A DNA stretch of 64,000 nt from Gemmatimonadaceae bacterium (GCA_035626995.1 DASPMP010000019.1:9080-73079); one strand, 5' to 3'; positions 7,632-64,000 are shown, numbered from the stretch's first letter. Program-made: numbers and translations. Notes: generated by a model not told the origin, from the sequence alone.

Positions 7632-7678
7632 AGCGGGCCGAACCGAACACTAATTGAACCACAGCCTCCTCTGCGCGA

Positions 7679-14660: not shown

Positions 14661-14670
14661 CGTCTTTTTC

Positions 14671-18241: not shown

Positions 18242-18245
<4 letters not shown>
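16854..18245 (-). CDS. pep2: Maltokinase (maltose 1-phosphate-forming; stand-alone, not fused to TreS)
   Basis: Aminoglycoside-phosphotransferase-like core VHGDYHLGQVLR ... FLIIDFEGEP, positioned between treS and glgX. The ATG at 18243-18245 overlaps the treS stop (ATGA). Confidence 0.8.
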
Positions 18246-19950
<1,705 letters not shown>

Positions 19951-19954
<4 letters not shown>

Positions 19955-22089: not shown

Positions 22090-22244
22090 AAGAAGATGGA
22101 CCCGGGAAAAGCGATAGGGTCAGGGATGGGGATGTTTATCTATCCCCTCCCCCGACCCTTTCCCTTTTCCCGCTTCCCTGTCCCCTCTGTTCCCGTTCCC
22201 TGTTCCCTCTGTTCCCGTTCCCTGTTCCCTGTTCCCTGTTCCCT
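22024..22244. repeat. Inverted heptad-repeat element. The left arm is (GGGAAAC)n on the + strand; the right arm is (GTTCCCT)n, i.e. (AGGGAAC)n on the - strand; a central palindrome lies between them.
   Basis: 22024-22060 has six G3-5 tracts with 3-4 nt loops. 22144-22243 has 15 C3-5 tracts with 1-6 nt loops. The element fills the spacer between the Vgb-like gene stop and glgE. Confidence 0.9.
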
Positions 22245-24853: not shown

Positions 24854-26373
24854 ACATAACCTCGGCGCTTGGGCCTCGGCCCTCGGCTCTCGGCTCTCGG
24901 CTCTCGGCGATGCTGATCCTGGTCATTGCTGTGGCACCTCTCAGCGCGCAGCAGCGGCAGGCGGCGACGCCGGCACGTCCGCGAACGGTGGCGATCGATC
25001 GCACCAAGCAGCCCACGCCCGCGAAATCTCCCGAGCTGAAGGTGCCCGCGTGGACGAAGATGCGGCTCTCCAATGGTGCCGAACTGGTGGTATCCGCCAA
25101 GCGCGACCTGCCACTGGTATCGGTGTCGATAAACTTCCTCGGCGGCGCGAATCAGTTCGAGGACGCGGCAAAGCTTGGCGTCGCGTCGTTCACGACATCG
25201 ATGCTCAACGAGGGCACGACGTCACGCAGCGGTGACCAGCTCGCCGACGCGCAGCAGTTGCTGGGCACTCGAATCACCGCGAACGTCGGCGACGAGAGCG
25301 GCAGCATCGGCTTCACCGCGCTGAGCGACAAGCTCGAGCCCGCGCTCGATCTCCTGGCCGACATGATGCTGAACCCTGTGTTCCCGGCGCAGGGACTCGA
25401 GCGCCTTCGCGCCCAGCGCCTCGTTTCGCTGACGCAGGCAAAGGATCAGCCGGGCGCGATCGCGAACAATGTCTTCTCGAAGGTCGTGTACGGCGATGAA
25501 CACCCGTACGGGCGGGTTGTGAACGAACAGACGACGCGTGCGATCACGCGCGAGGATGTCGTCGCATTCCATCGCGAGTACTTCAAGCCCGGCCGCGCGA
25601 GCATCACCGTTGTTGGTGACGTGGATCCCGCGCGCGTGAAGGCGGCCTTCGAGAAAGCCTTCGCGAACTGGAGTGCTGGTGGTGAGAAACCCGCGTTTAC
25701 GTATCCGCCAGCACCGGCATCGAAGTCCACGACCATCTACCTCGTCGACAAGCCGAAGGCTGCGCAGTCCGTCATCAACATCGGCCTGCCAGGTCCGTCG
25801 CGCGATACGCCGGACTATTACGCGATCAGCGTAATGAACCACATCCTCGGCGGGCTGTTCCAGTCGCGACTCAATCACCTGATTCGTGAGGTGAAGGGCT
25901 ACAGCTACGGCGTGGGCTCGGGCTTCAGCTATGGACGCGGACCGGGCGCGTTCTCCGCGGGCGGTGACATCGTCTCGGAGAAGACCGACAGCGCATTGAT
26001 CGACTTCATGAACGAGCTGCGTGGCGTGCAGGGTTCTAAGCCGTTCACGGAAGATGAGATCAAGCAGGGGAAGGAGTCGCTGATCCAGAGCCTGCCGCGT
26101 CGCTTCGCGTCGGTTGACGGGGTCAATGGCGCGATTTCGGGACTGTACGTGAACGACCTGCCCGAGTCATACTATCAGGAGTATGCCGCAAAGATCGAGG
26201 CGGTGACGCCCGACGACCTGCAGCGCGTGGCGAAGAAGTACATCGACCTGAACAACCTCAATATCGTGATTGTCGGTGATCGCGCGACGATCGAGGAGTC
26301 GCTGCGGAAGACTGGCATCGCTCCCATCGTCATCCTGGATATCGAGGGCAAGCGGGTTCCGGCGACGCCGTGA
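24850..26373 (+). CDS. M16 family peptidase, non-catalytic partner subunit (no HxxEH)
   Basis: 507-aa ORF, homologous in layout to the upstream M16 gene but lacking the zinc motif. The ATG at 24850 overlaps the upstream stop (ATGA). The signal peptide MLILVIAVAPLSAQ starts at the second ATG (24910), after the repeat-encoded 20 aa. Confidence 0.85.
   Translation: MNITSALGPRPSALGSRLSAMLILVIAVAPLSAQQRQAATPARPRTVAIDRTKQPTPAKSPELKVPAWTKMRLSNGAELVVSAKRDLPLVSVSINFLGGANQFEDAAKLGVASFTTSMLNEGTTSRSGDQLADAQQLLGTRITANVGDESGSIGFTALSDKLEPALDLLADMMLNPVFPAQGLERLRAQRLVSLTQAKDQPGAIANNVFSKVVYGDEHPYGRVVNEQTTRAITREDVVAFHREYFKPGRASITVVGDVDPARVKAAFEKAFANWSAGGEKPAFTYPPAPASKSTTIYLVDKPKAAQSVINIGLPGPSRDTPDYYAISVMNHILGGLFQSRLNHLIREVKGYSYGVGSGFSYGRGPGAFSAGGDIVSEKTDSALIDFMNELRGVQGSKPFTEDEIKQGKESLIQSLPRRFASVDGVNGAISGLYVNDLPESYYQEYAAKIEAVTPDDLQRVAKKYIDLNNLNIVIVGDRATIEESLRKTGIAPIVILDIEGKRVPATP
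24861..24909. repeat. Seven tandem heptads, CTCGGCY (complement of GCCGAGR)
   Basis: ctcggcg cttgggc ctcggcc ctcggct ctcggct ctcggct ctcggcg, lying between the two M16 cistrons. Confidence 0.95.
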
Positions 26374-28799: not shown

Positions 28800-30062
28800 C
28801 TATCGCTTCACCACCCGGATCTCCGGCAAGGGAAAGATCATCCCCACCCCGGCATCCAGCAGCGCGGCCTCTCGCTTAACGAACTCCGCCTCGAAGTGCC
28901 ACGGCAATACGAGATAGAAGTCCGGCTTCATCGCGCGCGAATCCGCCTCGCTGATGATCGGGATGTCCGTGCCCAGGGTCTTCGCGCCGAACTTGTCCGG
29001 ATTCCGGTCCGCGGCGTAGTCGATGAGCCGGTTGTCGATGCCGCACCACTGCAGGATGGTGTTTCCCTTCGTCGACGCGCCGTAGATGTGGATGCTCTTC
29101 CCTTCCGCCTTCAACCGCTTGAGCATCCCGAGCAGCTTCTCGCGATGCACGTTGATCCGGTCCTGGAAATTCTGGTACGGCTTGTCGGTGTCGAGCTCGA
29201 GGTCGAACTCCTGCTGGCGCATCAGGGCGATCTGTCCGCGCCATTCGGGATTGATGTACTTGACGCTGTCCTTCTTCGCGACGTAGCAGCGGATGCTGCC
29301 GCCGTTGATGTCATTCTCCTCGACGCGCACCACCTTCAACTTCGCCCGCGCCATGATCTGCTCCAGCACGGCGAGGCTGTAGTACTCGAGATGCTCGTGA
29401 CAGATCGTGTCGTAGGAGTTCATCTCGAGCATCTTCGGCATGTACGACATCTCGACAATCCAGAGCCCATCCTCAGCGAGATATCGCTCGATGGACTGCG
29501 CGAACGCCACGGGATCTTCGAGATCGTAGAACATCGCGATCGATGTCACGACGTCGAGCTTCGTCTTCCCGAGGACCCGATCGAGCTCCGGCGACGGAAA
29601 GAGGTCGTTCACCACCGTGATGTCGTCGTCTTTGATCTCGGTGACGATGTCCGACGGGTCGATGCCGAACTTGCGAAACCCCTTTGGGTACGCACGCAGC
29701 AGCGTGCCGTCATTTGCGCCGATGTCCAGCACGGCGGCCTTCGATTCGCCCACCATCTCCACGGCGGTGGCCGCGATGCCCGACAGGTGGTTGCGCATCG
29801 TCTGGTTCGTTCCCGACCGGTACCAGTACGCGGAATAGAGCACCGAAGGAGGCACGGACTTGCGCATCTGCAGCAGGCCGCAGGCGTTCTCGTCCTGCGT
29901 CGGATCGCAGCGCATCAGCGAGCAGTCGATCTTCCGCATCGGCGGGATCTCCTTCCCCACCTTCAGGAACGATCCCTGGAGATGCTGCTCGCCAAGGCTG
30001 ATGACGGGTTTGAGCGCGGTCGAGCCACAAACCCTGCAGGTCTTTCGATATGTCAGATGCAT
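28800..30062 (-). CDS. NDP-hexose C-methyltransferase-like enzyme (TylCIII/zinc-ribbon + class I MT + C-methyltransferase C-terminal domain)
   Basis: 420 aa. N-terminal CRVCGS..; YWYRSGTNQTMRNHL; SAM motif VLDIGANDGTLL; EHLEYYSL; C-terminal Rossmann-like IHIYGASTKGNTILQ..DRNPDKFG. Confidence 0.75.
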   Translation of the reverse strand: MHLTYRKTCRVCGSTALKPVISLGEQHLQGSFLKVGKEIPPMRKIDCSLMRCDPTQDENACGLLQMRKSVPPSVLYSAYWYRSGTNQTMRNHLSGIAATAVEMVGESKAAVLDIGANDGTLLRAYPKGFRKFGIDPSDIVTEIKDDDITVVNDLFPSPELDRVLGKTKLDVVTSIAMFYDLEDPVAFAQSIERYLAEDGLWIVEMSYMPKMLEMNSYDTICHEHLEYYSLAVLEQIMARAKLKVVRVEENDINGGSIRCYVAKKDSVKYINPEWRGQIALMRQQEFDLELDTDKPYQNFQDRINVHREKLLGMLKRLKAEGKSIHIYGASTKGNTILQWCGIDNRLIDYAADRNPDKFGAKTLGTDIPIISEADSRAMKPDFYLVLPWHFEAEFVKREAALLDAGVGMIFPLPEIRVVKR

Positions 30063-30110
30063 GGCGCCGTCTAATATCGCGCACTAGCCAGTGGGCGGCT
30101 ATCACGTAGA

Positions 30111-44068: not shown

Positions 44069-44101
44069 TCGGCCTCGGCCCTCGGCTCTCGGCTCTCGGC
44101 A
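44058..44101. repeat. CTCGGCY heptad repeats spanning the S8 peptidase stop codon
   Basis: ctcggcg ctgatcggc ctcggcc ctcggct ctcggct ctcggca. The TGA at 44066-44068 lies within the array. Confidence 0.9.
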
Positions 44102-51304: not shown

Positions 51305-52855
51305 ATGAACGAACGCGCTGGCGTCGCGGTGTCGATGTCCCGCCGGGAGCTCGCATATCTCGTAATGGCACTTGCCGGGGGCACGATCGCGCTCCTGTCC
51401 GTCAGCGGTGTGCTGTGGACGCGTCCGTTGTGGATGGATGAACTGGCGACGGCCTGGGTAACCGCGCATGCGTCCCCGGTCGATGTTGTGCGCCACATCG
51501 CGCGAGGGGGCGAATGGTCGCCGCCGGCATATCATCTTCTCGTCTGGATCGTACGCCAATTGAGTGGTGGCGGACTCGATCCCATCGTACTGCGGTCCGT
51601 GTCAGCGTTGCTCGCAACCGTCGCCATCGCGCTGGTGTATGCGACGCTTCGCCGACGCGTCGAGATCGCGACTGCTGCGGCCGCAACGCTCGTGATGGTG
51701 GGACATTCGCTGTTCATCGAGCAGGCTTTCGAGGGCCGCATGTACGCGGGTTGGCTCGCGGCGGCCGCCTTCTACGCATGGTCCCTGGGGCAACCGCAGC
51801 ACACGCGTGGAGCACGCGTACGACAGGGGCTCGCGGCCGTGTTGCTCGTCGCCGTACACTGGTTCGGCATCCTCTCACTTGGCCTGATGGCGGTCGGAGC
51901 GTTGTTGGCGCGGACTGGTGCGCTGCGGGACCGCATTCGGCTCGTCGTTCCCAGCGCTGCCGGAATCATCGCGCTGATCGCCCTGTCGCCGCTCGTGCTG
52001 GCACAACGGCGCGCTGCGTCAGGCATCCTTTGGGTGCCCGAGATCACCCTCGACCAGACGACCGTCCTGCTGCGCTTCTTCCTCCCGGCAGCAGCGATGG
52101 TAATCGTGGCGATTGCGGCCGTCGCATCTGTTCCATGGCGCGAATCGGCGTCGGCTGAAGCGAACCCTGATCCGCTCAACCCCGGTATCGCCGCGCTTAC
52201 CTCGCTCGTTCTGATGCCGCTGGTGTTGATTCTGGTGTCGCTGTTGCTGCAGCCGTCGATGCTGCCGCGTTATGCAGTCGTTACGGTGTTGGGATGGCCG
52301 GCGATTTTCGCGCTCGCCATTCATCTGCTGGATGTGCGTTTCCGGGTCGCGCTCGTGACGGTTTTTTCGTTCGTCGCTGCCCTGTCTTTCGCCGATGCAA
52401 CGGATGTGCGTCAGGTCTTCGCCCGCCGTGCTGCCGCGTTGCAGTCCGCGGTCCGTGAAGCGGGCGGCACACGTTTGCCCGTTGTGCTCCAGGCAATTCA
52501 CCCGATGTACTACGCCGCGCTTCCGACACCGGGCGCGCCACCACCAGCTCGGTACATCTCCGTCCCCGATTCCGCGATAGCCGGCATGTACGATGGACCC
52601 TACGCCCCCTACGTCCGCCGACACCTGCATCTGGAGCGCGAGATTGCCGCGGAGCATGAACGGCTGTTCGGCTTTCCTCCCTCGGTTGCGCTTGCGACCC
52701 TGGACACCACGCCCGCCTTCGCGCTCGTCGCCGACGCAGGGAGTCTTCCGCCGCAGTACGGAAGCGTGCAGCAATGGGCCAGGCGTCTGCTGCCGAATCA
52801 TTCCGTGCGACGCGTGAGCCCCCTGGTGTCCATTCTCGAGCGTCAGGCGCGTTGA
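51305..52855 (+). CDS. GT-C fold membrane glycosyltransferase (PMT/ArnT/GT39-GT83-like), paralog 1
   Basis: 516 aa and polytopic. First-loop acidic motif RPLWMDELATAW. C-terminal soluble domain of about 150 aa. Confidence 0.7.
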   Translation: MNERAGVAVSMSRRELAYLVMALAGGTIALLSVSGVLWTRPLWMDELATAWVTAHASPVDVVRHIARGGEWSPPAYHLLVWIVRQLSGGGLDPIVLRSVSALLATVAIALVYATLRRRVEIATAAAATLVMVGHSLFIEQAFEGRMYAGWLAAAAFYAWSLGQPQHTRGARVRQGLAAVLLVAVHWFGILSLGLMAVGALLARTGALRDRIRLVVPSAAGIIALIALSPLVLAQRRAASGILWVPEITLDQTTVLLRFFLPAAAMVIVAIAAVASVPWRESASAEANPDPLNPGIAALTSLVLMPLVLILVSLLLQPSMLPRYAVVTVLGWPAIFALAIHLLDVRFRVALVTVFSFVAALSFADATDVRQVFARRAAALQSAVREAGGTRLPVVLQAIHPMYYAALPTPGAPPPARYISVPDSAIAGMYDGPYAPYVRRHLHLEREIAAEHERLFGFPPSVALATLDTTPAFALVADAGSLPPQYGSVQQWARRLLPNHSVRRVSPLVSILERQAR

Positions 52856-54435
52856 GCACGCAACTGTCGTCCCGGCGTGACACGCTGATCGTTGCTGGTG
52901 TCATGCTCGCGCTGCTGGGCTGCGCGGTGAGCGTGTGGAACATCCTGCTCACTCGGCCGCTCTGGCTCGATGAAGTCCACACGCTGATCGTGGCAGAGCG
53001 CCCCACCGCGGCGCTGGTCCTGTCCGACCTTACCGGTGGCGTCGATACTGCGCCAGGCCTGATGCACCTCCTCATGTGGTCAATCGGCAGGGTGGTATCG
53101 CTCTCGCCCGTCGTGCTGCATCTCGTCCCCCTCGTCGCCGTGTGGCTGGGGCATGTGTTCCTGTTCGCGGCGTTGCGCCGGCGTTTTGGCGTCATCGCTT
53201 CCAGCGCGGGAACGCTCGCGGTGCTGACGACCCTCCTGGTCGTCCAGATGACGTATGAGGCACGGTTCTACGGGCTGTGGCTCATGTTCGCGGCAGGATT
53301 CGCATGCGCAATCGGTCGGGAGCCATCGCGCGGACGCGATCTGCTGGTCGGTGTATTCGCGATCCTGCTCTGCACCATTCACTGGTTTGGCGTCATCTCC
53401 CTGGGGATCATGTGCGTCGCAGTGATGACGGTGCACTGGCGGACATGGCGTGTCGGCCTCCGCGCAATCGTCCCTGCCGCCGCAGGCATCATTGCCCTGC
53501 TTTTCACCATTCCGGTGCTGCTCGGTCAACGCGCCGCCGTGACGGCGCCGACCTGGATCCCCGCCCCGAATTCAGGACAGATATGGGAGATGACGCGAAC
53601 GTTTTACGTCGCGCTCGTTCCCGTGCTCGCCGTTTTGATTCTGCTCGCTCAGCGACTCCGGCCGAGAGCTGACAGCCGAGACCTGACAGCCGAGGGCCGA
53701 GAGCTGACAGCCGAGAGCCGGGAGCCGAGGCCGGACGGCCGAGAGCCGAGGGCGCTATGGAACCGCAGCATCGTGGCACTCGCGTCGCTCGCCTTGATGC
53801 CCGTCGCGATGTACATGGTGTCCGTCGTGCTGCAGCCCAGCCTCCTCGACCGGTATTCAACGGTTGCATTGCTGGCATGGGCGCCCCTCGTCGCCTGCGC
53901 GACTCAAGCGCTTCCCGCGCGCGCCGGTGTGCTGTTCTCGCTCCTTTTGCTCAGCCTCGGCGCACTCAACTACCGTCGCGCTGCCGGCGGCATGCAGAGT
54001 TACCAGCGGGTGTTCGACGCCGATTTGCGCTCGTGGAACGCTGCCGTCTCCCGCACCGACCTTCCGATCGTTTTCCAGGCGCGGCATGTCCAGCTTCCCA
54101 TCGCTGCCGTAAAACCGTCAGGGCGCGAACGGATGGCATTTCTGGTGCTGCCGGACTCCACTCTCAACGCCGCCTTCAACGTGCGTGGCCCGCTGCGGCT
54201 GATGAACGCATTCTTCCGGTTCGAGCGCGAGGCCGCGCTGCTACACCATCGCGTCTATCGCTTTCCACCGGTGCGAACCCAGGCCGAGCTGGATACCACG
54301 TCCCAATTCCTGCTGCTGGCTTCAGACGCGAGCCTGCCCCCGGGCTACAAGAACGTCGAGCGATTCGCGCAGGTCTTTTTCCCGACACACACGGTGACGC
54401 GACTCGAAAGGAATCTGGCGCTGCTGAGACGGTGA
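52852..54435 (+). CDS. GT-C fold membrane glycosyltransferase, paralog 2 (carries an in-frame repeat insertion)
   Basis: The TTG at 52852 overlaps the upstream stop. RPLWLDEVHTLI. Colinear with paralog 1 along its whole length, including the C-terminal ..ASLPPGY.. region. Confidence 0.7.
   Translation: MSTQLSSRRDTLIVAGVMLALLGCAVSVWNILLTRPLWLDEVHTLIVAERPTAALVLSDLTGGVDTAPGLMHLLMWSIGRVVSLSPVVLHLVPLVAVWLGHVFLFAALRRRFGVIASSAGTLAVLTTLLVVQMTYEARFYGLWLMFAAGFACAIGREPSRGRDLLVGVFAILLCTIHWFGVISLGIMCVAVMTVHWRTWRVGLRAIVPAAAGIIALLFTIPVLLGQRAAVTAPTWIPAPNSGQIWEMTRTFYVALVPVLAVLILLAQRLRPRADSRDLTAEGRELTAESREPRPDGREPRALWNRSIVALASLALMPVAMYMVSVVLQPSLLDRYSTVALLAWAPLVACATQALPARAGVLFSLLLLSLGALNYRRAAGGMQSYQRVFDADLRSWNAAVSRTDLPIVFQARHVQLPIAAVKPSGRERMAFLVLPDSTLNAAFNVRGPLRLMNAFFRFEREAALLHHRVYRFPPVRTQAELDTTSQFLLLASDASLPPGYKNVERFAQVFFPTHTVTRLERNLALLRR
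53661..53751. repeat. GCCGAGAGCTGACA / GCCGAGR repeat array inside the coding sequence of GT-C paralog 2
   Basis: gccgagagctgaca gccgagacctgaca gccgagg gccgagagctgaca gccgaga gccggga gccgagg ccggacg gccgaga gccgagg. Translated as ..RADSRDLTAEGRELTAESREPRPDGREPRA.. Confidence 0.9.
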
Positions 54436-54452
54436 GGCGCTAGGCGCCGCTA

Positions 54453-54527
54453 GTCGGCTTGTCGGATGGTAGGCTTCTCGATGTTTTGAGAAGCTGAGAA
54501 GCCGTCAAGCAGATAAGCCATCAAGCC
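54453..54527. terminator. Imperfect inverted repeat of GGCTTNNC / GAGAAGCY units between convergent genes (candidate bidirectional terminator)
   Basis: gtcggcttgtcggatggtaggcttctc - gatgtttt - gagaagctgagaagccgtcaagcagataagccatcaagcc, lying between the stop at 54433-35 (+) and the stop at 54537-39 (-). Confidence 0.5.
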
Positions 54528-54536
54528 CGTTGCCAG

Positions 54537-55466
54537 CTACTTCAAATTCAGCGACTCCTCGATGACATAGATCGGCCGTCGCTTCGCCTCGCTGAACGTC
54601 CGCCCGATGTATTCCCCGAGGATGCCGATGCCGAGGCTGTTCACGCCGAGCCCGGCGAGCACCAGCACGATCAGCGTCGTGAGACCTGGCGGTGGTGAGC
54701 CGCGCAACCAAAGCGTCACGTACACGATCGCGAGCAGGAACGACACGCCGAGCACCATGAACCCGAAAAGGGTGAACAGGCGCAGTGGCCGTAGGGAAAA
54801 GCTCGTGATCGCGTTGAACGTGAACAGCAGGATGTCCGCGAGCGGCGCGTTGCTGCGTCCGGTCGTACGGGGACGCCGCTCGTACTCCACGCCGATCTGC
54901 TTGAACCCGACCCAGGCGATCATCCCGCGCATGTAGCGGTTCACTTCACCCATTCGCAGCACGGCGTCGCGGACCCGTGAGCTGATGAGCCGGAAATCGC
55001 CGGTGTCCTTCGGGATCGGGACGTCAGAGAGCCACGCGATCATCCGATACGCGAGCCACGCGCCCGCGTTGCGCCACTTCGGGTCTCCGGCGCGCACGGT
55101 GCGCACGCCGTAGACCACGTCATACCCCTGCTTCCATTTCTCGATGAACCGCGGAATGACTTCAGGGGGATCCTGCAGATCCGAATACAGCACAACCATC
55201 GCGTCACCATTCGCGTGCTCATAGCCGGCGGTGATCGAGCCTTCGACCGAGAAATTCCGGCTGAACCGGATGTATCTCCATCGCTTGTCTCGCTGACAGA
55301 GCTCGGCGGCGAGCCGGCCGGTGTCGTCGGTGCTCGCATTGTCGACGATGATGAACTCGAAGTCGTCCGGCTGGGACGCCGCCAGCGCCGTCACCTCGGC
55401 CTCGACGCGCGCCATGTTCCCCGCCTCGTTCCGGGCAGGGATGATGATCGTAATGAGCTTTTTCAC
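54537..55466 (-). CDS. GT2 polyprenyl-phosphate glycosyltransferase (GtrB/ArnC/Dpm1-like) with two C-terminal TM helices
   Basis: IIIPARNEAGN.., FIIVDNASTDDT, VLYSDLQDPPEVIPRF.., C-terminal FMVLGVSFLLAIVYV and LIVLVLAGLGVNSLGIGILGEYIGR. Confidence 0.85.
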   Translation of the reverse strand: MKKLITIIIPARNEAGNMARVEAEVTALAASQPDDFEFIIVDNASTDDTGRLAAELCQRDKRWRYIRFSRNFSVEGSITAGYEHANGDAMVVLYSDLQDPPEVIPRFIEKWKQGYDVVYGVRTVRAGDPKWRNAGAWLAYRMIAWLSDVPIPKDTGDFRLISSRVRDAVLRMGEVNRYMRGMIAWVGFKQIGVEYERRPRTTGRSNAPLADILLFTFNAITSFSLRPLRLFTLFGFMVLGVSFLLAIVYVTLWLRGSPPPGLTTLIVLVLAGLGVNSLGIGILGEYIGRTFSEAKRRPIYVIEESLNLK

Positions 55467-55634
55467 GTCTCGGTCAGCGGTGGGCGCATTGCCTCAGATA
55501 ACGATTAGCCGATGCAGAACGAAACGCTTGCGTCCCTGTTGTCATGCGGGCGGGGGAGCCCGCCTGCCCTCTGGGACGCCCGGCCCTCTGAATCGTCCTA
55601 TGGGGGCTGGATTCACTGTAGGCCCAAGCACTTA

Positions 55635-55720
55635 GCGCCGAGGCCGAGGCGGAGCGCCGAGGCCGAAACCGTTAGCTGTCAGCCGAGAGCCGAGAGCTGA
55701 AGGCCGAGAGCCGAGAACCG
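55635..55720. repeat. GCCGAGR heptad array directly upstream of the rfbF start codon
   Basis: gcgccgag gccgagg cggagc gccgagg ccgaaac cgttagctgtca gccgaga gccgaga gctgaag gccgaga gccgaga accgataaaATG. Confidence 0.9.
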
Positions 55721-55725
55721 ATAAA

Positions 55726-56502
55726 ATGAAAGTCGTCATTCTGTGCGGTGGCCAGGGCACACGACTGCGCGAGGAAACCGAGTTCCGGCCGAAGCCACTC
55801 GTCGACGTCGGCGGACGCCCTGTGCTCTGGCACATCATGAAGTTCTACGCACACTTCGGGTTCAAGGAATTCATCCTCTGCCTCGGCTACCGGGGCGCGA
55901 TGATCAAGGAGTACTTCCTGAACTACGAGGCGATGAACAGTGATTTCACCATCAGCCTCGGCGAGCACCACGCGATCAAGTACCACGAGCCGCATGGCGA
56001 GCAGGATTATCGCGTCACCCTCGTGGACACCGGGCAGGATACCGCAACCGGAGGCCGCGTCGCCCGCACGCGCGGCTACGTCAAGGACGATCTCGTGATG
56101 GTGACATACGGCGACGGTCTCGTGGACGTCGACATCGCCAAGGCCATGGCCTTCCACAAGGAGCATGGCAAGCTCGCGACCGTGACCACCGTGCGTCCCA
56201 CGTCGCGCTTCGGGATTCTCGAGCTCGACGATCGCGCTGGCGTCGAGCGCTTCTCGGAGAAACCCCAGGTGGATGGCTGGGCCAGCGCCGGATATTTCAT
56301 CTTCGACCGCAAGATCTACGACTATCTTGGCGGCGACGACTGCGTTCTCGAGCGCGAGCCACTGGAGCAGCTGGCGAAGGAGAAGCAGCTGATGGCCTAT
56401 CGCCACGACGGATTTTTCTTTGCGATGGACACCTATCGTGAATACCTGCAGCTCAACGAGCTGTGGAACACCGGCACCGCCCCTTGGAAGGTCTGGAAGT
56501 GA
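55726..56502 (+). CDS. rfbF: Glucose-1-phosphate cytidylyltransferase (CDP-glucose synthase)
   Basis: [65 protein letters not shown] is nearly diagnostic of RfbF/DdhA. Confidence 0.92.
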
Positions 56503-57518
56503 AGCCGAGAGCCGAGGGCCGAGAGCCGAGGCCGAGGCTCAAAGCCGAGGCCAATTTCTGGACCGACCGCCCAACCCTCGTCACAGGCGGCACGGGCCTC
56601 GTCGGCAGCTGGCTTGTCAAGCGACTGGTGGAGCACGGCGCATCGGTCGTGTGTCTCGTGCGCGACTGGGTGCCGCAGAGTGAGCTCGTGCGCACGGGAA
56701 CGCTCGAGAAGGTCAACGTTGTTCGTGGCGACGTGCGCAGCCAGCGGGTACTGGAGCGCGCGATCGGCGAGTACGAAGTGGACACGGTCATACATCTCGC
56801 CGCGCAGACCATCGTGGGGATCGCGAACAGAAATCCGGTGTCGACCTTCGAGTCGAACATCCAGGGAACCTGGGCACTCCTCGAGGCGTGCCGGCGGAGT
56901 CCGCTGGTGAAGCAGGTGGTGATCGCATCGTCGGACAAAGCGTACGGCGACCAGGAGAACCTTCCGTACCGTGAAGACGCGCCGCTGCAGGGACGCAATC
57001 CCTACGACGTCAGCAAGAGCTGCTCTGATCTCATCGCGCAGTCGTATGCGTCGGTCTACGGGCTGCCCGTTGCAATCACGCGCTGTGGCAATTTCTACGG
57101 TGGCGGCGACCTGAACTGGAATCGCATTGTACCGGGGACCATCCGCTCGGTGCTGCGCAACCAGCGCCCGGTCATCCGCTCTGACGGCACCTACATCCGC
57201 GATTATTTCTACGTCGAGGACGGTGCGGCGGCCTACATGCTGCTCGCGGAGAAGATGTCGTCGAACCCCACGGTTCGCGGACAGGCGTACAATTTCTCGA
57301 ATGAGATCCAGATACCGGTGCGGGATCTTGCGAACCGGATCCTTCAGCGGATGGACTCGAAGCTCGAGCTCGACATCCGCAACGACGCCGTGAACGAGAT
57401 CAGGCACCAGTACCTGTCGGCGGACAAGGCGAAGCAGGAGCTCGCGTGGACGCCCCTGTTCAATCTCGACCAGGGACTCGACCGCACCATCGCGTGGTAC
57501 CGTGATTTCTTTGGCTGA
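56499..57518 (+). CDS. rfbG: CDP-glucose 4,6-dehydratase
   Basis: [25 protein letters not shown] matches the RfbG N-terminus. The SDR catalytic residues are SSDKAYG..YDVSKSC. The only in-frame start before the Rossmann motif is the GTG at 56499 (or 56463), so the heptad repeat is translated ([17 protein letters not shown]). Confidence 0.88.
56504..56552. repeat. GCCGAGR heptad array at the rfbF/rfbG junction (inside the rfbG 5' coding region)
   Basis: gccgaga gccgagg gccgaga gccgagg ccgaggctcaaa gccgagg cc. Confidence 0.9.
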
Positions 57519-57572
57519 ACAGGCACAGACGTTCATGCGAAAAGGGAACTCATTCAATCAGTCCCTTCGTCG

Positions 57573-58928
57573 GTGGAGCTTGCGTGGGGTGGAAAGGTGA
57601 CCACGCGATCCCCCCAGGAACTGCGCAAAGCGGTCCTGAAGCTCGTCGCCGAGTATCATGGGGCGGCTTTCCAGAAGGGCGAGTTCGTGCCCGGCGAGAC
57701 GCCGATCCCGGTGAGCGGGAAGGTGCTCGATGCCCGCGACTTCCAGATGATGACGGAGGCGGTGCTTGACGGCTGGCTCACCACCGGACGCTTCGCTGCC
57801 GATTTCGAGCGCAAGTTCGCGCGGTTCTTCGGCATTCGTCACGCGATGCTCGTGAATTCCGGGTCGTCGGCGAATCTCTGCGCATTCTCCACGCTGACGT
57901 CGCCGTTGCTCGAGGGCGACGAGCTGCAGGCGGGTGACGAAGTCATCACGGTCGCCGCGGGATTCCCAACGACCGTGAACCCGATCATCCAGAACCGGAT
58001 GGTCCCTGTCTTCATCGACGTCGAGCTTGCGACCTACGGCCCGGACGTCACCCAGCTCGAGCGCGCCCTCTCGAAGAAGACCCGGGCGATCATGGTCGCG
58101 CACACCCTCGGCAATCCGTTCGACCTCCGTGCGATCACCGAGTTCGCGAAAGCGCACGACTTGTGGCTCATCGAGGATTGCTGCGACGCGGTCGGCGCGA
58201 AGTACGACGGCAAATCCGTCGGCACCTTCGGGGATCTCGCGACCGTCAGCTTCTATCCCGCGCACCATATCACGATGGGTGAAGGGGGCGCGGTGCTCAC
58301 GAACACGCCGTCCATGAAGCGCATCGTCGAGTCCATCCGCGACTGGGGACGCGATTGCTGGTGCGATCCGGGGAAGGACAACACCTGCGGGAAGCGCTTT
58401 GACTGGCAGCTCGGCGATCTCCCGCACGGGTACGATCACAAGTACATCTACTCGCACATCGGCTACAACCTGAAGCTCACCGATATGCAGGCTGCCATTG
58501 GCGTCTCGCAGCTGGAGAAGCTTCCGGATTTCATCGATGCGCGCCGCCGGAATTTCGAATACCTGCACAACGCGCTGGGCGACCTGGACGACGTGCTCAT
58601 TCTGCCGCGCGCGACGCCAAACAGTGAGCCAAGCTGGTTCGGCTTTCCGTTGGCCATTCGTCCGGGCGCGGGCGTGACACGGAAGGCGATCATTCGCCAC
58701 CTCGAGAGCCGCATGATCGCGACTCGCCTGCTCTTCGGCGGCAATCTCGTGCGGCAGCCGGCGTACAGGAACGTCGAGCATCGCGTGGTTGGCACGCTCA
58801 AGAATTCGGACTTTGTCATGAACAACGTCTTCTGGATCGGCGTCTACCCTGGCCTCACCGAAGAGATGCTCGCGTTCGTGAGCCAGAGCATTCACGAGGC
58901 CGTCGCACTTGCTCACTCCGCCGCGTGA
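57573..58928 (+). CDS. rfbH: CDP-4-keto-6-deoxy-D-glucose-3-dehydrase (E1; PMP- and [2Fe-2S]-dependent)
   Basis: DegT-fold sequence with His replacing the PLP lysine ([14 protein letters not shown]). Cysteine pattern C-x57-C-x-C-x7-C (..EDCCDAV.. then [17 protein letters not shown]), counted by hand. The start is the GTG at 57573 or the GTG at 57597. Confidence 0.9.
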
Positions 58929-60028
58929 CGCACGTCTCCGAGCTCGGCGCGAATCCCCTCGATGTCGTTCGCGATGACTGCCAGTCCATCGCCGAGCGGC
59001 TGGGCGACGACGTGCAGCGGTTTGCCGGGAAGACGGTTTTGATCACCGGCGCCGCCGGGATGCTTCCGGCGTATCTCGTGGATGTGCTGGCGCATCTCAA
59101 CGACACGAAGCGCCTGGCGAAGCCTGTCGAGATCCTTGCCGTCGTCCGCTCACCGGATTCGAACGAATTCCGTCTCCGTCATCTGCGCGGCCGCAAGGAC
59201 GTGCAGTTCATTCTCGCGGACGCCGCGATGCCGTTTGAAGTGGAGGAACGGGTGCACTTCTACGTTCATGCCGCGTCGCCTGCGTCGCCTACCGCGTACC
59301 GTGCAGACCCGGTCGGGACGCTTGAGGTCAATGGGCCAGGCACTCGCCACGTGCTGGAGTTGGCGAAGCGTGACGCCGCCGAAAGCGTTTTGTATTTCAG
59401 CACGAGTGAGGTGTATGGCAGCCCCGATGCAGCCAACATCCCGACGCCTGAGACGTACGTTGGCGCCACGCAATGGCTCGGCGGCCGCGCCTGCTACGTG
59501 GAGGGAAAGCGCTTCGGCGAGGCCCTCTGCGCCGCGTCGTGGGAGCAGCATCGCACGCCCGTGAAGATCGTGCGGCCGTTCCACATCCAGGGACCGGGGC
59601 TGCGACTCAATGACGGCCGCATTGTCGCAGAGCTCATCCGGATGGGCATCGAGGGGCTCCCCTTCGAGCTCAAGTCAAACGGTATGGCGACACGGACCTA
59701 TGGCTACATCTCCGACGCCGCATTCGCATTCCTGAAGGTGCTGCTCAGCAATGAAGATGGAGAAGCATTCAACGTGGGCGCAGACAATCCCGAGACGTCG
59801 ATGAAGGAGCTGGCGTCCATCGTGTCCCGGATTTTCGGCCGCACAGAGCCGGTTCGCGTCGGTGCGGACACCCGCGCCGCGCATCTCGCTGGCGCGCCCG
59901 ATCGCGTGCGACCCGACCTGGCGAAGATCCGCGATCGGCTGGGCGTGGTCCCGATGGTGAGTCTCGAGGATGGCTTGCAGCGCACCATCCACTGGCATCG
60001 GTCCCGCCTCGCGGTGGCTGCCTCATGA
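58925..60028 (+). CDS. Extended SDR, NAD-dependent epimerase/dehydratase/ketoreductase family
   Basis: [18 protein letters not shown] (Rossmann), [15 protein letters not shown] (YxxxK). The GTG start overlaps the rfbH stop (GTGA). Confidence 0.8.
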
Positions 60029-60933
60029 ATGTCGCCAAGCTGCGGGGCGCCTACGAGCGGGGCGAGCTGCCTCGCGACGAGTTCTGGCTCAGGGCGCAGG
60101 AAGAGTACCGCCGCACGCGCGAGCATTCGTCGCTCCCGTCGAACGGCGCGGTCAAGGGCATTCGCCGCGTGGATGATGACCTGATCGTCGAGCTGCGTGA
60201 CGGCATCCGCATGCGCTGGGACATCGAGGACATGCGCACCGCGCCGAACATGCTGCTCAATCACGGCGAGTACGAGAGCCGCGAGCTGCAGGTGCTGCTG
60301 GACGCCGCGCGTCAGGCGCAGATCGTGTTCGACGTCGGCGCAAACGTCGGCTGGTATACGATCAACATCGCCCGAGCCATCGCGCGGCGTGGCGGACACC
60401 TGTACGCCTTCGAGCCCATCCCGCGGACCTTCGCGACCCTGCAGTACAATGTGCGCCTCAACGCGCTCCAGAGCTGCACCACCCTGTCGAACGTTGGGCT
60501 CGGCGACGCGGAGCAGCAGGTGGAGTTCTACCTGCCGAAGGTAACAGGGAGCGTCGCGGCCTCGCAGAAGCCCTTGTTCGAGCAGCAGGAGAACGAGAAG
60601 GTGACGGCGAAGATCGTGCGCCTCGACGAATTCATCGCGCAGAAAGGGATCAAGCGACTGGACCTGCTCAAGTGCGACATCGAGGGTGCGGAGCTGCTCA
60701 TGCTGCGCGGCGGCATGGACAGCATCGCGCGCTTTCGTCCCGTGATCTTCCTCGAGCTGCTGCGAAAGTGGAGCAAGGTGTACGGCTACCATCCCAATGA
60801 TGTGATCGCGCTGCTCGCCAAGGTGGGCTACCAGTGCTTCGCGATCGGTGATGATGAGCTCGTGCCCATCGCGAGTATCGACGACGAGACCACGAGCACG
60901 AACTTCCTGTTCACGCACGGAGACCCGCGATGA
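60025..60933 (+). CDS. FkbM family methyltransferase
   Basis: VFDVGANVGWYTINIA..HLYAFEPIPRTFATLQYNVRLN..VGLGD..LDLLKCDIEGAEL. The ATG overlaps the SDR stop (ATGA). Confidence 0.85.
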   Translation: MNVAKLRGAYERGELPRDEFWLRAQEEYRRTREHSSLPSNGAVKGIRRVDDDLIVELRDGIRMRWDIEDMRTAPNMLLNHGEYESRELQVLLDAARQAQIVFDVGANVGWYTINIARAIARRGGHLYAFEPIPRTFATLQYNVRLNALQSCTTLSNVGLGDAEQQVEFYLPKVTGSVAASQKPLFEQQENEKVTAKIVRLDEFIAQKGIKRLDLLKCDIEGAELLMLRGGMDSIARFRPVIFLELLRKWSKVYGYHPNDVIALLAKVGYQCFAIGDDELVPIASIDDETTSTNFLFTHGDPR

Positions 60934-60955
60934 ACTCTGGGTGTGGAGGACAGCC

Positions 60956-61759
60956 GTGACTGACACAGTTCACCTGGCGCGGGCAATCCGCGGACACGCC
61001 CTGCGCATGTGCTCGCACGCCGGCTCGTCGCACATCGGCACCTGCCTCAGCATGGCCGATCTCCTCGCGGTGCTGTACGCCAAGGTGTTGAAGCACGATG
61101 CGAACAATCCCACCTGGGCCGAGCGCGACTGGTTCCTGTTGAGCAAGGGGCATGGCGCAGCCGCACTGTATGCGGTGCTCGCGGAGCGCGGGTTCTTTCC
61201 GGTGACAGAACTGCATCGCTATGGAGACGAAGGTTCACCGCTGCTCGGGCATGCCAGTCATCACGTCCCGGGAGTCGAGCTCTCCACCGGCTCACTCGGC
61301 CACGCGCTGCCCGTCGGCTGCGGAATCGCGCTTGCCGCGAAGCGCGACGGCAGGAAGAATCGCGTCTTCGTGCAGCTCAGCGATGGCGAGCTGGATGAAG
61401 GCTCCAATTGGGAAGCCATCCTCTTCGCCCCGCATCACAAGCTCGACAACCTGTTCGTGCTCGTGGACTACAACAAGATCCAGAGCTTCGGCCGGGTCGA
61501 GGAAGTGCTGGGGCTCGAGCCTCTCGTGGACAAGTGGAGCGCGTTCGGGTGGGAAGTCCGCGAGATCGAAGGGCACGATCACACAGCGATCGCGCGCGCG
61601 CTGCGGAAGCCGTCGCGAGCCGGCATACCTGTCGTCGTCCTCGCGCATACGGTCAAAGGCAAAGGCGTCTCCTTCATGGAGAACGATCTCGCCTGGCATT
61701 ATCGGTCTCCGAGTACAGATCAGTTGCGCTCAGCGCTCGTTGAGCTGGGTGACGCATGA
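60956..61759 (+). CDS. Split transketolase, N-terminal (ThDP-binding) subunit
   Basis: GGAGG lies 6 nt upstream of the GTG at 60956. GSSHIGTCLSMADLLAVLY, SKGHGAAALYAVL, ThDP motif LSDGELDEGSNWEAI...VDYNKIQ. Confidence 0.85.
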   Translation: MTDTVHLARAIRGHALRMCSHAGSSHIGTCLSMADLLAVLYAKVLKHDANNPTWAERDWFLLSKGHGAAALYAVLAERGFFPVTELHRYGDEGSPLLGHASHHVPGVELSTGSLGHALPVGCGIALAAKRDGRKNRVFVQLSDGELDEGSNWEAILFAPHHKLDNLFVLVDYNKIQSFGRVEEVLGLEPLVDKWSAFGWEVREIEGHDHTAIARALRKPSRAGIPVVVLAHTVKGKGVSFMENDLAWHYRSPSTDQLRSALVELGDA

Positions 61760-61796
61760 CGGCTAGCCAGCCGCGTCGTGCAGCGCTGGTGCCGTC

Positions 61797-62714
61797 ATGA
61801 GAACCACATTCATACGGACGCTGATCGAGGTCGCCGCGGAGAACGACAATGTCTGGCTCGTGGCGGGCGATCTTGGCTATTCAGTCCTCGAGGCGTTTTC
61901 CGAGAAATACCCACAGCGCTATCTCAATGCCGGTGTCGCCGAACAGAACATGACGGGGATCGCAGCCGGTCTGGCGCTCGCCGGGAAGACGACGTTCACG
62001 TATTCGATCGCGAACTTTCCGGTATTTCGCTGCCTCGAGCAGGTGCGCAACGACGTCTGCTACCACAACCTGAACGTGAAGGTCGTCGCTGTTGGCGGGG
62101 GGCTGGCATACGGGTCTGCCGGCTACAGCCATCACGCCGTGGAGGACCTGGCGGTGATGCGTTCGCTGCCGAACATGGTCGTGTTCGCGCCAGCGGATCC
62201 TGTGGAGACGCAACTCGTGACCCGCGCCGCGGTGCAGCACCAGGGACCCTGCTACATCCGTCTTGGAAAGGCCGGCGAGCCGGTACTGCACACCGCGACC
62301 CCGGCATTCGCCATCGGCAAGGGGATCGTCGTGCGACCGGAGGGCGACGTCGCAATGATCTCGACCGGCGGGATGCTCGGCACTGTCCTGCGGGCGGCGG
62401 ACGAGCTGGGACAGCACGGGGTGAAAGCGCGCGTGATCAGCATGCCGACAGTCCAGCCCATCGATCGGGACCTCATCGAGCGCCTTGCGAGGGAGACCCG
62501 GGCGATCGTGACCGTCGAGGAGCATGGCATCGGCGGGCTGGGGAGCGCAGTCGCCGAAGTGCTGGCCGAATGCGTGGAACGCCCCCGCTTTCGTGCTATA
62601 CGCCTCGATGGCGCGCCATCAGCGCTTGCGGGTACTCAGGACGCACTGCGCGGCGCCCACGGCCTGAGCGCGCCGGGGATTGCGGCTGCTGTGCAGGCGC
62701 TCGTTGCCGGGTAA
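61797..62714 (+). CDS. Split transketolase, C-terminal (pyrimidine-binding plus C-domain) subunit
   Basis: RYLNAGVAEQNMTGIAAGLALAGK, GGLAYGSAGYSHHAVEDLAVMRSLPNM, VTVEEHGIGGLGSAV. Confidence 0.85.
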   Translation: MRTTFIRTLIEVAAENDNVWLVAGDLGYSVLEAFSEKYPQRYLNAGVAEQNMTGIAAGLALAGKTTFTYSIANFPVFRCLEQVRNDVCYHNLNVKVVAVGGGLAYGSAGYSHHAVEDLAVMRSLPNMVVFAPADPVETQLVTRAAVQHQGPCYIRLGKAGEPVLHTATPAFAIGKGIVVRPEGDVAMISTGGMLGTVLRAADELGQHGVKARVISMPTVQPIDRDLIERLARETRAIVTVEEHGIGGLGSAVAEVLAECVERPRFRAIRLDGAPSALAGTQDALRGAHGLSAPGIAAAVQALVAG

Positions 62715-62717
62715 GGC

Positions 62718-63575
62718 CTAGGCCCTCTCCGCCTTCGAGTTCACCACGGGTTCGGGAGAGCTCGACGGCCGCACGTAATCCCCGCGCGAGAAATACTTCT
62801 CGATCAAACAGTACAGGATGATGAAGAGGTACCGGCTCCCCATCTCCTTGATCACGAACTTCGATTCGCCTGTCGCGCGCCCCAGCCAGTTCGTCGGCAC
62901 TACCGTCCAGGTGTAACCCCGCACCATGGCCTTGAGCGGCAGCTCCACGGTGAGGTTGAAGTGGTTGGACAGGAAGGGACGCAGCCCTTCGACCACCTCT
63001 CGACGATAGCACTTGAAGGCATTCGTCGTGTCGTTGTAGCCCGTGCGGAACAGCAGCCGGATCGCCTGGTTCCCCATCCGGTTCAGCCACAGCTTGAGGG
63101 GTGGATAATTCCGCACTGACGCCCCCGCGGCGAAGCGCGAGCCGAAGACGCAGTCGTAGCCTTCCTCGAGCTTGCGATAGTACTGCACGATGTCGCGCGG
63201 ATCGTCGGAGGCATCCGCCATCACGATCGCGACCGCGTCCCCCTGCATCGAGTCCAGGCCGCGACGCACGGCCAGGCCGAAGCCGCCGGCGCCGCGATTC
63301 ACGACAGTTCGCAGCACCGGAACGTCCGATCGCATGGCGTTCAGCACGGCCGCGGTGTTGTCGGTGCAGTGATCCAGCACGACGAGAATCTCGTGCGGCA
63401 CCGACTCACCACGCAACGTGCCGTAGATCGCGTGGATGGTGCGCGCGATCCCCGCCTCTTCGTTGTGCGCCGGGATCAGCACCGTGAGCTTCCCCGCCCA
63501 GCGCACCGCGGTCGCGGCGTCTGGACCGGCTGCCACCGGCACCTGGGGTGGCGACGTCGTCAGGCTGTCAGCCAC
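62718..63575 (-). CDS. GT2 glycosyltransferase, Dpm1-like (polyprenyl-phosphate sugar synthase type)
   Basis: [11 protein letters not shown].., [28 protein letters not shown].., [10 protein letters not shown], with a C-terminal hydrophobic segment [10 protein letters not shown]. Confidence 0.82.
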
Positions 63576-64000
63576 CGGTCCCGGTTCTCCCCGATGATTT
63601 CAGTGAGGATGCGATCGCAGTCGTAGGTGATCTTCCACTGCGGATAGTGCATCTGGAATTTGGCGAAGTCCGTGATGTACCACATGTGATCACCGATGCG
63701 CGCCTCGTCCTTGTACGACCATTTCATCGGCTGCCCGGTGACGCGCTCGCAGGTGGTGATCGCCTCGAGCATGGAGATGTTGCTGTCGCGTCCACCACCC
63801 ATGTTGTAGACCTCGCCGGCGCGTGGGCTCTCGAAGAACGCGTCGAACGCGGCGATGAGATCTGCCGAATGGATGTTATCGCGCACCTGCTTCGCCTTGT
63901 ACCCGAAGACCGTGTATTCCCGGCCGGTCACGGCACACTTCGCCAGGTAGGCGAGGAACCCGTGGAGCATGGTGCCGGAGTGATTCGGGCCGGTGAGGCA
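63560..64000 (-). CDS. NAD-dependent epimerase (CDP-paratose 2-epimerase-like), C-terminal part. The N-terminus lies beyond the window end.
   Basis: The frame is open to base 64000 (..[18 protein letters not shown]..). [53 protein letters not shown]. Subfamily assignment is from memory and not certain. Confidence 0.7.

Follow-up and report, generated by a model that had tools for sequence, protein, structure and literature searches.

Can a sugar activated by cytidine diphosphate (CDP) enter a polyprenyl-phosphate relay and be installed outside the cytoplasm? Synthases of the GtrB/Dpm1 type are understood to use sugars activated by uridine diphosphate (UDP) or guanosine diphosphate (GDP), and the 3,6-dideoxy and the C-branched hexoses, classic immunodominant sugars of O-antigens, have to our knowledge been met so far only via cytoplasmic Leloir enzymes. 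The question is raised by positions 51305-64000 of a 64,000-nucleotide stretch of DNA from a soil Gemmatimonadaceae bacterium (GCA_035626995.1, DASPMP010000019.1:9080-73079), called here the window, where a CDP-3,6-dideoxyhexose operon stands beside genes for two glycosyltransferases of family 2 (GT2) and for two membrane proteins of the glycosyltransferase fold GT-C. On sequence and conserved gene linkage, we consider it fairly probable that undecaprenyl phosphate is charged by one member of the GT2 pair, GT2_309, with a 3,6-dideoxyhexose that derives from a CDP-sugar, is probably branched and O-methylated, and is then transferred by a GT-C enzyme in the periplasm. The region as a whole is best explained, from its genes and their distribution, as the accessory end of a large surface-glycan locus, with two periplasmic-decoration modules, Module B (51305-62714) and Module A (62718 to beyond 64000), of the three-component type, in which a synthase of polyprenyl-phosphate sugars works with a flippase and a GT-C. 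The window, with a G+C content of about 64%, is part of a 103.6-kb metagenomic contig (ENA ERZ27257321, k141_614745), where window position 64000 corresponds to contig position 30499 and the protein records name a Gemmatimonadaceae metagenome-assembled genome (MAG); the open reading frames (ORFs) of the island were picked by high third-position G+C.

GT2_309 (54537..55466, minus strand) is transcribed divergently from rfbF and matches PF00535 with an E-value of 7.5e-27. Its residues 5-304 can be aligned to residues 28-328 of Synechocystis GtrB (PDB 5EKP, E 4e-60), with correspondence of the D-L-Q-D (DxxD) and G-D-F-R motifs, and the alignment with ArnC is also full-length (E 7e-36). This similarity takes in the interface helices and the transmembrane (TM) hairpin, which in GT2_309 is represented by two C-terminal TM helices at residues 227-257 and 260-285, and the only relatives found in the PDB are polyprenyl-phosphate glycosyltransferases. 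The best NCBIfam match is PgfS, at 229 bits against a cut-off of 500, while ArnC scores 133 bits against 529; judged by these scores, GT2_309 is a polyprenyl-phosphate glycosyltransferase of the GtrB/ArnC family and no orthologue of a characterised enzyme. As for its donor, the gene context points to a CDP-sugar. A scan of 54300-55800 gave no promoter-like sites, and the sole terminator-like match, located inside the GT2_309 coding sequence, was at the level of shuffled sequence.

The gene context was followed in other organisms, in related loci that carry L numbers here. Homologues of GT2_309 at 62-67% identity were found in MAGs named Pyrinomonadaceae, Verrucomicrobiia and Aggregatilineales, and four cross-phylum loci (L091-L094) were selected by taxon label and extent of sequence only; the subfamily, at 63-87% identity, is present in Gemmatimonadota, Acidobacteriota, Verrucomicrobiota and Chloroflexota. 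In both L091, on a 2.76-Mb contig, and L092 (Pyrinomonadaceae) the genes run GT4, RfbH (67-69% identity), short-chain dehydrogenase/reductase (SDR), a YerE-like thiamine diphosphate (ThDP) enzyme of the acetohydroxyacid synthase (AHAS) type, and GtrB-like GT2 (64-65%); GT87 and a 741-aa protein precede the GT2 in L092, and YfhO and DUF2079 GT-C genes come after it in both loci. L093 (Verrucomicrobiia) reads SDR, N-terminal subunit (TK_N, 62%) and C-terminal subunit (TK_C, 59%) of a split transketolase, and GT2 (66%), with PMT_2 and a Dpm1-like GT2 nearby. L094 (Aggregatilineales) has on one strand RfbG (70%), RfbH (66%), RfbF (59%), SDR, YerE-like enzyme and GT2 (63%), the last two genes separated by a 3-bp gap, and housekeeping genes follow the GT2.

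All seven loci in which the GT2 is at least 63% identical to GT2_309 adjoin orthologues of RfbH/RfbF and/or a ThDP enzyme for sugar branching, either a split transketolase or a YerE-like protein. As a contrast set we used 35 metagenomic loci of at least 4 kb, in which the GT2 is only 34-43% identical to GT2_309: none of them has an RfbF, RfbH or YerE-like orthologue, and one (L073) has a split transketolase at 40%. The comparison of 7/7 with at most 1/35 gives p of about 3e-7 by Fisher's exact test, calculated by hand, for loci that are not fully independent. We incline, if only slightly, to the view that these enzymes form a cross-phylum GtrB-type subfamily specialised in yersiniose-like sugars, namely CDP-activated 3,6-dideoxyhexoses with a 4-C branch or O-methylation, making undecaprenyl-phosphate-linked sugars that are installed by diverse GT-C enzymes (the new family described below, YfhO, GT87, DUF2079 and PMT_2).

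The same loci bear on whether GT2_309 could be a membrane-anchored GT-A enzyme acting directly on a lipid-linked oligosaccharide or glycolipid, the adjoining GT-C proteins being functionally unrelated to it. The lack of any GT-C gene within 10 kb in L094 would agree with such direct transfer; GT-C genes of five different families, however, adjoin the subfamily in six of the seven loci, and this, together with the full-length likeness to GtrB/ArnC and the nature of the PDB relatives, makes direct transfer very improbable. A side observation was made in L073 (2223-9159), from an AT-richer lineage, where a distant GtrB-like GT2 (36%) follows SDR, TK_N and TK_C (40-41%), with genes for a Dpm1-like GT2 and for an 824-aa protein unmatched in Pfam further upstream. 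Because this pairing of transketolase and GtrB occurs there with a GT2 of 36% identity, it may extend beyond the subfamily of at least 63%.

Within Gemmatimonadota, 19 related loci were collected around homologues of the GT-C proteins and screened with a panel of island proteins. Module B is made of the second GT-C protein (GT-C 2, 59-61% identity), GT2_309 (86-87%), RfbF (87-90%), RfbG (81%), RfbH (83%), SDR (78%), a methyltransferase of the FkbM family (73%) and TK_N. The module is uninterrupted in L020, which has three GT-C genes in tandem, and in L006 up to RfbF, where the contig ends; in both, GT-C 2 orthologues (59-61%) are directly beside GT2_309 orthologues, and this adjacency holds in every one of the three Gemmatimonadota loci that show this side. 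L009, which shares its MAG with L006, has the same chromosomal neighbours as the window. In L024 a GT2 (74%) diverges from RfbF-G-H-SDR-FkbM, no transketolase is present, a histidine kinase and a sigma-54 regulator follow, and the contig ends before the GT-C side. The SDR is co-conserved at 76-78% identity in L020 and L024. Four further loci (L002, L005, L015 and L016) are without rfbFGH and without orthologues of GT2_309 and GT-C 2; they carry instead aminotransferase, WbqC, acetyltransferase and methyltransferase genes and a different GT2. Since Module B is contiguous in L020 and L006 while those four loci are without all three components, the CDP-sugar genes, GT2_309 and GT-C 2 are, by this distribution, gained and lost together.

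The sugar supplied by the operon (plus strand, 55726-62714, from RfbF to the split transketolase) can be followed gene by gene. RfbF (glucose-1-phosphate cytidylyltransferase, 55726..56502, plus) reaches 330.9 bits on TIGR02623, above the cut-off of 300.25. RfbG (56463..57518, plus) is like CDP-glucose 4,6-dehydratase: TIGR02622 is its best NCBIfam match (216.7 bits against a cut-off of 278.45, with 185.7 for the dTDP-glucose dehydratase model) and 1RKX (E 7.5e-45) and 1WVG are its PDB matches. Homology begins at about residue 32; a heptamer repeat occupies 56502-56552, and translation probably starts past it, near 56556. RfbH (E1, CDP-4-keto-6-deoxy-D-glucose 3-dehydratase, 57573..58928, plus) scores 725.5 bits on NF011936 against a cut-off of 423 and aligns to Yersinia E1 (3BCX) with an E-value of 4.5e-171. 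The histidine of FYPAHH and the Fe-S cysteines are conserved, at what we take to be the E1 motif positions (His in place of Lys in FYPAHH, and [2Fe-2S] as C-X57-C-X1-C-X7-C), and we know of RfbH-type E1 enzymes only with CDP-4-keto-6-deoxyglucose.

Then come an extended SDR of 367 residues (SDR367, 58925..60028, plus, PF01370), a candidate keto-reductase for the sugar or the branch, whose best PDB match is human UXS1 (UDP-glucuronate decarboxylase, E 6e-46), making it UXS-like and not RfbJ/RfbS-like; the FkbM-family methyltransferase (60025..60933, plus, PF05050; TIGR01444 at 105.7 bits against a cut-off of 37.7); and the two subunits of the split transketolase. The ThDP-binding N-terminal subunit is at 60956..61759 (plus, PF00456, E 2.5e-41), with an ORF open from 60848 and a public call of 267 aa, and the pyrimidine-binding and C-terminal subunit is at 61797..62714 (plus, PF02779 and PF02780). 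Enzymes of the YerE type branch CDP-4-keto-3,6-dideoxyglucose with pyruvate, and a transfer of hydroxyacetyl groups to keto sugars has been proposed for transketolases (PMC12247030); no direct report of an O-antigen precedent combining transketolase and rfbH was found in the literature.

The membrane partners were less easily recognised. GT-C 1 (51305..52855, plus), a polytopic protein of 516 aa with about nine TM helices by hydropathy, and its paralogue GT-C 2 (52774 or 52903..54435, plus) share 33% identity from end to end (E 5e-71), and in each the acidic motif, RPLWMDELATAW in GT-C 1 and RPLWLDEVHTLI in GT-C 2, directly follows the first hydrophobic helix; in GT-C 1 it has the form WxDE. 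Neither protein matches any Pfam or NCBIfam model, even at E 10, and a profile of 33 homologues searched against PDB sequences returned only noise; the fold was therefore established with AlphaFold2 and Foldseek. The AlphaFold2 model of GT-C 1, built on 33 homologues, has a pLDDT of 90.7 and a pTM of 0.91, and its best 31 Foldseek matches in the PDB are all GT-C enzymes (ArnT, AftA, DPY19, Pmt1/2/4, AftB, PglB, AglB, EmbB, ALG9 and STT3), with TM-scores of 0.38-0.48; after rank 31 only unrelated transporters of low probability follow. The best match is ArnT (5F15, E 3.5e-7, TM-score of about 0.38, 14% identity).

A word-indexed search of 5.8 billion proteins gave 34 relatives of the GT-C pair, all metagenomic, and those with a taxon label are from Gemmatimonadota. 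W43, D45 and E46 do not vary among 33 close homologues, nor do D45, E46, R145, Y147 and H185 among 60 distant members of the family (22-30% identity); PF13231 (PMT_2) is matched by 4 of the 34 close and by 27 of the 60 distant relatives. An exhaustive profile search recovered 335 representative clusters at E of 1e-30 or less and 4294 at 1e-3 or less. Because of the GT-C fold matches, the invariant D-E pair and the PF13231 matches among distant relatives, the two proteins are placed, on sequence and model, as a divergent, uncurated branch of the PMT_2/ArnT-like group; the family is new to curated databases and clearly a part of that group. By homology, fold and acidic motif are as in enzymes acting outside the cytoplasm on lipid-phosphate-linked donors.

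Some features of the GT-C genes stand apart from this argument. The longest ORF of GT-C 2, starting at 52774, overlaps the end of GT-C 1 by 82 nt (52774-52855), and the publicly called start at 52903 truncates the first TM helix. Arrays of a GCCGAGA heptamer, of 5-13 copies, are found at 53661-53750, 55637-55721, 56502-56552, 24875-24908 and 44074-44100, with 19 pattern matches across the window where chance would give 0.8. Inside GT-C 2 one array encodes a low-complexity loop insertion that GT-C 1 is without, another is upstream of rfbF and a third at the rfbF/rfbG junction. A 7-nt repeat in a gene could cause phase variation by frameshift; the copies are imperfect, with about 70% matches.

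From these components a sequence of steps can be proposed. RfbF, RfbG and RfbH would make CDP-4-keto-3,6-dideoxy-D-glucose, RfbF and RfbH being assigned by homology above cut-offs. The split transketolase would add a two-carbon branch at the 4-keto carbon, a step that would be optional since the orthologous locus L024 is without it; the UXS-like SDR would then reduce the product and FkbM O-methylate it. At the cytoplasmic face, as the conserved gene linkage suggests, GT2_309 would move the CDP-sugar to undecaprenyl phosphate, a putative flippase would carry the lipid-linked sugar across the membrane and GT-C 2, possibly with GT-C 1, would transfer it to an extracytoplasmic acceptor. The leading candidate for this acceptor, on weak grounds, is the polysaccharide of an adjoining Wzx/Wzy cluster.

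That cluster lies outside the window, of which about 29 kb of flank beyond position 64000 was read via exact-protein look-ups. Proceeding outward, the flank holds two SDRs of 355 and 365 aa like CDP-tyvelose 2-epimerase; a 160-aa protein, which TM prediction does not class as a membrane protein, and a 288-aa SDR; a PglF-like dehydratase, a 207-aa initiating phosphoglycosyl transferase (Bac_transf, PglC-type) and a PglE-like aminotransferase with GNAT; FdtB, FdtA and a hexapeptide acetyltransferase; a GT2; WbuX (272 bits against a cut-off of 203) with GATase/HisF-like partners; RmlA; a GT4; FnlC/B/A-like genes; a second GT2; Wzy (TIGR04370, 48.8 bits against a cut-off of 40); a 517-aa protein with 12 TM helices and no Pfam or NCBIfam match (L023:5817-7370, about 24 kb beyond the end of the window); a weak Wzz-like protein, an SDR and a second GT4; and finally Wzx. 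The 517-aa protein, whose gene is located between the Wzz-like gene and Wzy, could be a flippase, a ligase or a second polymerase. Because a conventional Wzx/Wzy cluster adjoins it, the island is, by gene order, an appendage of that cluster and no self-contained system; a stand-alone system, which had been considered, was rejected once this flank had been read.

The presence of such a cluster raises an alternative, in which the CDP-dideoxyhexose is used by one of its cytoplasmic Leloir glycosyltransferases and enters the repeat unit on undecaprenyl diphosphate, while the GtrB-like GT2 and the GT-C proteins constitute an ordinary Gtr-type system adding glucose or another UDP-derived sugar. This is how abequose and tyvelose are built into the repeat unit in Salmonella. 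The flank offers what is needed, namely Wzx, Wzy, a Wzz-like protein, an initiator and four Leloir glycosyltransferases (two GT4 and two GT2), and its sugar pathways (bacillosamine-like, FnlABC/WbuXYZ and FdtABC) are fewer than its transferases, leaving room for another donor; moreover, all characterised GtrB-type enzymes use UDP-sugars (Whitfield laboratory, PMC11127046). Yet the GT2 subfamily tracks RfbH and ThDP genes in four phyla, as the comparison with the contrast set indicates. In L094 the CDP-sugar operon ends with the GT2, and apart from a divergent GT4 no further glycosyltransferase is nearby; in L024 regulators border the side that can be seen, which has no Leloir glycosyltransferase; and in the present locus the rfb operon lies 7 kb away from the closest gene of the conventional cluster, with an operon on the opposite strand in between. 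We consider the Leloir route unlikely.

The identity of the acceptor leaves more latitude, and the same relay may be directed at another target: proteins (PMT/Pgf-like), lipid A or core (ArnT-like), or a separate periplasmic glycan assembled stepwise by GT-C paralogues, for which the mycobacterial arabinan and mannan provide a precedent. The affiliation of the GT-C family to a divergent PMT_2/ArnT-like branch is in agreement with this, as is the best NCBIfam match of GT2_309, since PgfS belongs to streptococcal protein glycosylation, even if the score is below the cut-off. Related loci, moreover, have 3-5 GT-C paralogues with several GT2s and sugar-modifying genes: in L017 (624-11554) and L020 (1296-5967) these paralogues are clustered or in tandem and interleaved with aminotransferases and GT2s, an arrangement of multiple paralogues that suggests stepwise assembly of a periplasmic glycan rather than a single decoration. 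Here, however, the modules directly abut the Wzx/Wzy cluster, no gene for an acceptor protein or for lipid A is evident nearby, and the fold matches do not separate acceptors. A target other than the polysaccharide of the cluster is possible, and we regard it as a tentative alternative that is rather improbable.

Returning to a relay in which GT2_309 delivers the CDP-derived sugar to GT-C 2 for decoration of the neighbouring polysaccharide, several points weigh against it. Gene linkage is no proof of donor specificity, and the UDP-sugar preference of characterised enzymes has been mentioned. A Wzx/Wzy cluster with its four Leloir glycosyltransferases and PglC-type initiator is 6-35 kb away, and one of these transferases could use the CDP-sugar. 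No GtrA, SMR/ArnEF or MATE-type flippase and no small multi-TM ORF was found in window positions 40000-64000 or in the flank read, where the 517-aa protein with 12 TM helices is the sole candidate without an assignment. RfbG is under its equivalog cut-off, and no E3 reductase (RfbI/AscD/DdhD) was detected, in that no ferredoxin-reductase-type domain appears in the window ORFs scanned (a few small ORFs were left out), in the flank or in the Pfam lists of the orthologous loci; the E1 homologue SpnQ works with general cellular reductases. Lastly, the related loci with multiple GT-C genes show no Wzx/Wzy within 10 kb.

We also asked which GT2 belongs to the CDP-sugar operon, as the second one, GT2_285 (62718..63575, minus), is the last gene of a separate operon. 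It is a soluble GT2 of the Dpm1/AglJ type (PF00535) with no TM helix predicted; its best NCBIfam matches are AglJ, Dol-P-hexose transferase and ArnC, none at the score level of an equivalog, and the relatives found in the PDB are limited to the dolichol-phosphate mannose synthase (DPMS) of P. furiosus, ArnC and GtrB. It overlaps by 16 nt the end of the gene for Tyv355, an SDR like CDP-tyvelose 2-epimerase (PF01370), whose C-terminal part is in the window (63560..64000, minus) and whose full length is 355 aa (L001:8949-10016). Tyv355 and its paralogue Tyv365 (365 aa, L001:7723-8820) both match 1ORR, with E-values of 1.3e-34 and 1.2e-33. The unit formed by GT2_285 (69-73%), Tyv355 (73-75%) and Tyv365 (68-70%), that is Module A, is kept in L002, L005, L015 and L016, and it is flanked there by GT-C paralogues. 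Since Module A is conserved in these loci, where rfbFGH is missing, GT2_285 is assigned to a separate unit and is probably not a partner of the CDP-sugar operon; the proposal that both GT2 and both GT-C proteins serve the CDP-sugar was rejected, as GT2_285 tracks the Tyv-like pair. Module A is best explained, from its conservation, as a second relay, independently conserved, in which two Tyv-like epimerases accompany a soluble GT2 of the Dpm1 type. The pair of SDRs could act on a nucleotide sugar or, in analogy to the epimerase converting undP-Ribf to Xylf (PMC11127046), on a lipid-linked sugar.

These results can be set against the initial annotation, made from the window alone. Every gene named there is present, at its position or a few codons from it. 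The tandem GT-C proteins with DE motifs in the first loop are borne out by motif and modelled fold, both GT2 enzymes do resemble GtrB/ArnC/Dpm1 by their PDB relatives (GtrB, ArnC and DPMS), the Pfam and NCBIfam matches agree with an extended SDR, FkbM and split transketolase, and the epimerase-like gene at the edge has CDP-tyvelose 2-epimerase as its best PDB match. The series rfbF-rfbG-rfbH is also recovered, RfbF and RfbH above curated cut-offs and RfbG below, with CDP-glucose 4,6-dehydratases as best matches. Among every ORF scanned in the window no export or initiation gene was found, as had been said; the annotation had added that a conventional O-antigen pathway in the flank accounting for the CDP-sugar genes would speak against its idea, and the flank does contain Wzx/Wzy and a PglC-type initiator, while the coupling of CDP-sugar, GT2 and GT-C is still supported by linkage. 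That coupling is supported, through its conservation in four phyla, for GT2_309; it probably does not extend to the GT2 at 62718-63575, and what had been described as a single island is better seen as two modules, GT2_285 being co-conserved with Tyv-like SDRs where rfbFGH is absent.

How far does this arrangement resemble known systems? Gtr-type systems (GtrA/GtrB/Gtr* of Shigella and Salmonella, GacI/GacL, CsbB/YfhO) share with it a GtrB homologue composed of a GT-A domain and a C-terminal TM hairpin, a polytopic GT-C and a Wzx/Wzy neighbour, but the island is without a GtrA-type flippase, its GT-C family is uncurated and its GtrB homologue is tied to an operon for a CDP-3,6-dideoxy or branched sugar and not to a supply of UDP-Glc or UDP-GlcNAc. 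The ArnC/ArnT system, acting on lipid A with Und-P-L-Ara4FN, likewise has a nucleotide-sugar pathway beside a GtrB/ArnC-type synthase and a PMT_2/ArnT-like GT-C, whereas the donor of the island would be a CDP- and not a UDP-sugar and no ArnA/B/D/E/F homologues are present. Pathways to yersiniose, erwiniose and caryophyllose (DdhA-C with a YerE-type enzyme and a reductase) have the RfbF-G-H intermediate beside a ThDP enzyme forming C-C bonds and a reductase, and YerE-like genes occupy the same position in orthologous loci; the island differs by its split transketolase in place of AHAS-type YerE, by the added FkbM, by having no DdhD/E3 and by a GtrB-type synthase instead of a Leloir glycosyltransferase. 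Pentofuranose systems (ORF12/14/15 of C. youngae and mycobacterial decaprenylphosphoryl arabinose, DPA) feed periplasmic GT-C enzymes with non-UDP donors and include SDR epimerases in their modules, a possible analogy for the Tyv-like SDRs beside GT2_285, but they start from phosphoribosyl pyrophosphate (PRPP) and a UbiA-type synthase and not from a GT2 and a nucleoside diphosphate (NDP)-hexose.

The closest proposal found concerns the lipooligosaccharide (LOS) of M. kansasii, where MKAN27435, a DPM-like GT2, is beside a glucose-1-phosphate cytidylyltransferase gene in a cluster for a rare branched sugar (PMC4403928). Its authors proposed a polyprenol-linked sugar donor, naming fucose, and made no link to a CDP-sugar (PMC4403928); that protein differs by an architecture of its own, with three TM helices and an SLC5-like domain. 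Apart from this proposal and the background on YerE and transketolases, no report of a CDP-sugar feeding a GtrB-type enzyme was found in the literature. The recurrence of the pairing between sugar pathway and loader in four phyla suggests a so far undescribed extracytoplasmic addition of such sugars. If this is true, it would be the first polyprenyl-phosphate relay fed by a CDP-sugar, widening the donor range of lipid-carrier glycosylation, and rare dideoxy or branched sugars could be installed after export. Gemmatimonadota, Acidobacteriota, Verrucomicrobiota and Chloroflexota would have a so far overlooked way of bringing rare branched sugars into their envelopes, the uncurated GT-C family with its 335 representative clusters would gain a functional handle, and annotation would gain a context rule, consisting of a GtrB-like GT2 with RfbH and a ThDP enzyme. 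The hypothesis is directly testable with recombinant enzymes.

The remainder of the window consists of genes for alpha-glucan metabolism, peptidases and housekeeping functions. The segment 44238-51253, with a full transketolase, a SerA-like protein, an FAD oxidase and GSDH, was considered as part of the island and rejected, its genes being of housekeeping type; in L009 the full transketolase, SerA-like and FAD oxidase genes are met again, next to GT-C genes arranged in another way, and of the three L002 has only the transketolase. On the minus strand at 5814-22119 there is a run of alpha-glucan genes (phosphorylase-like, amylase-family, MalQ, GlgB, CBM48/GlgX-like, a 514-aa protein, a TreS-like amylase and GlgE), which looks like a complete GlgE-pathway cluster. 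Finally, at 28800-30083 (minus), 21 kb from the island, there is a gene for a protein of the sugar C-methyltransferase type (Methyltransf_13/14, with a zinc-binding N-terminus), and similar genes occur in L002, next to the full-length transketolase, and in L017, at its edge.

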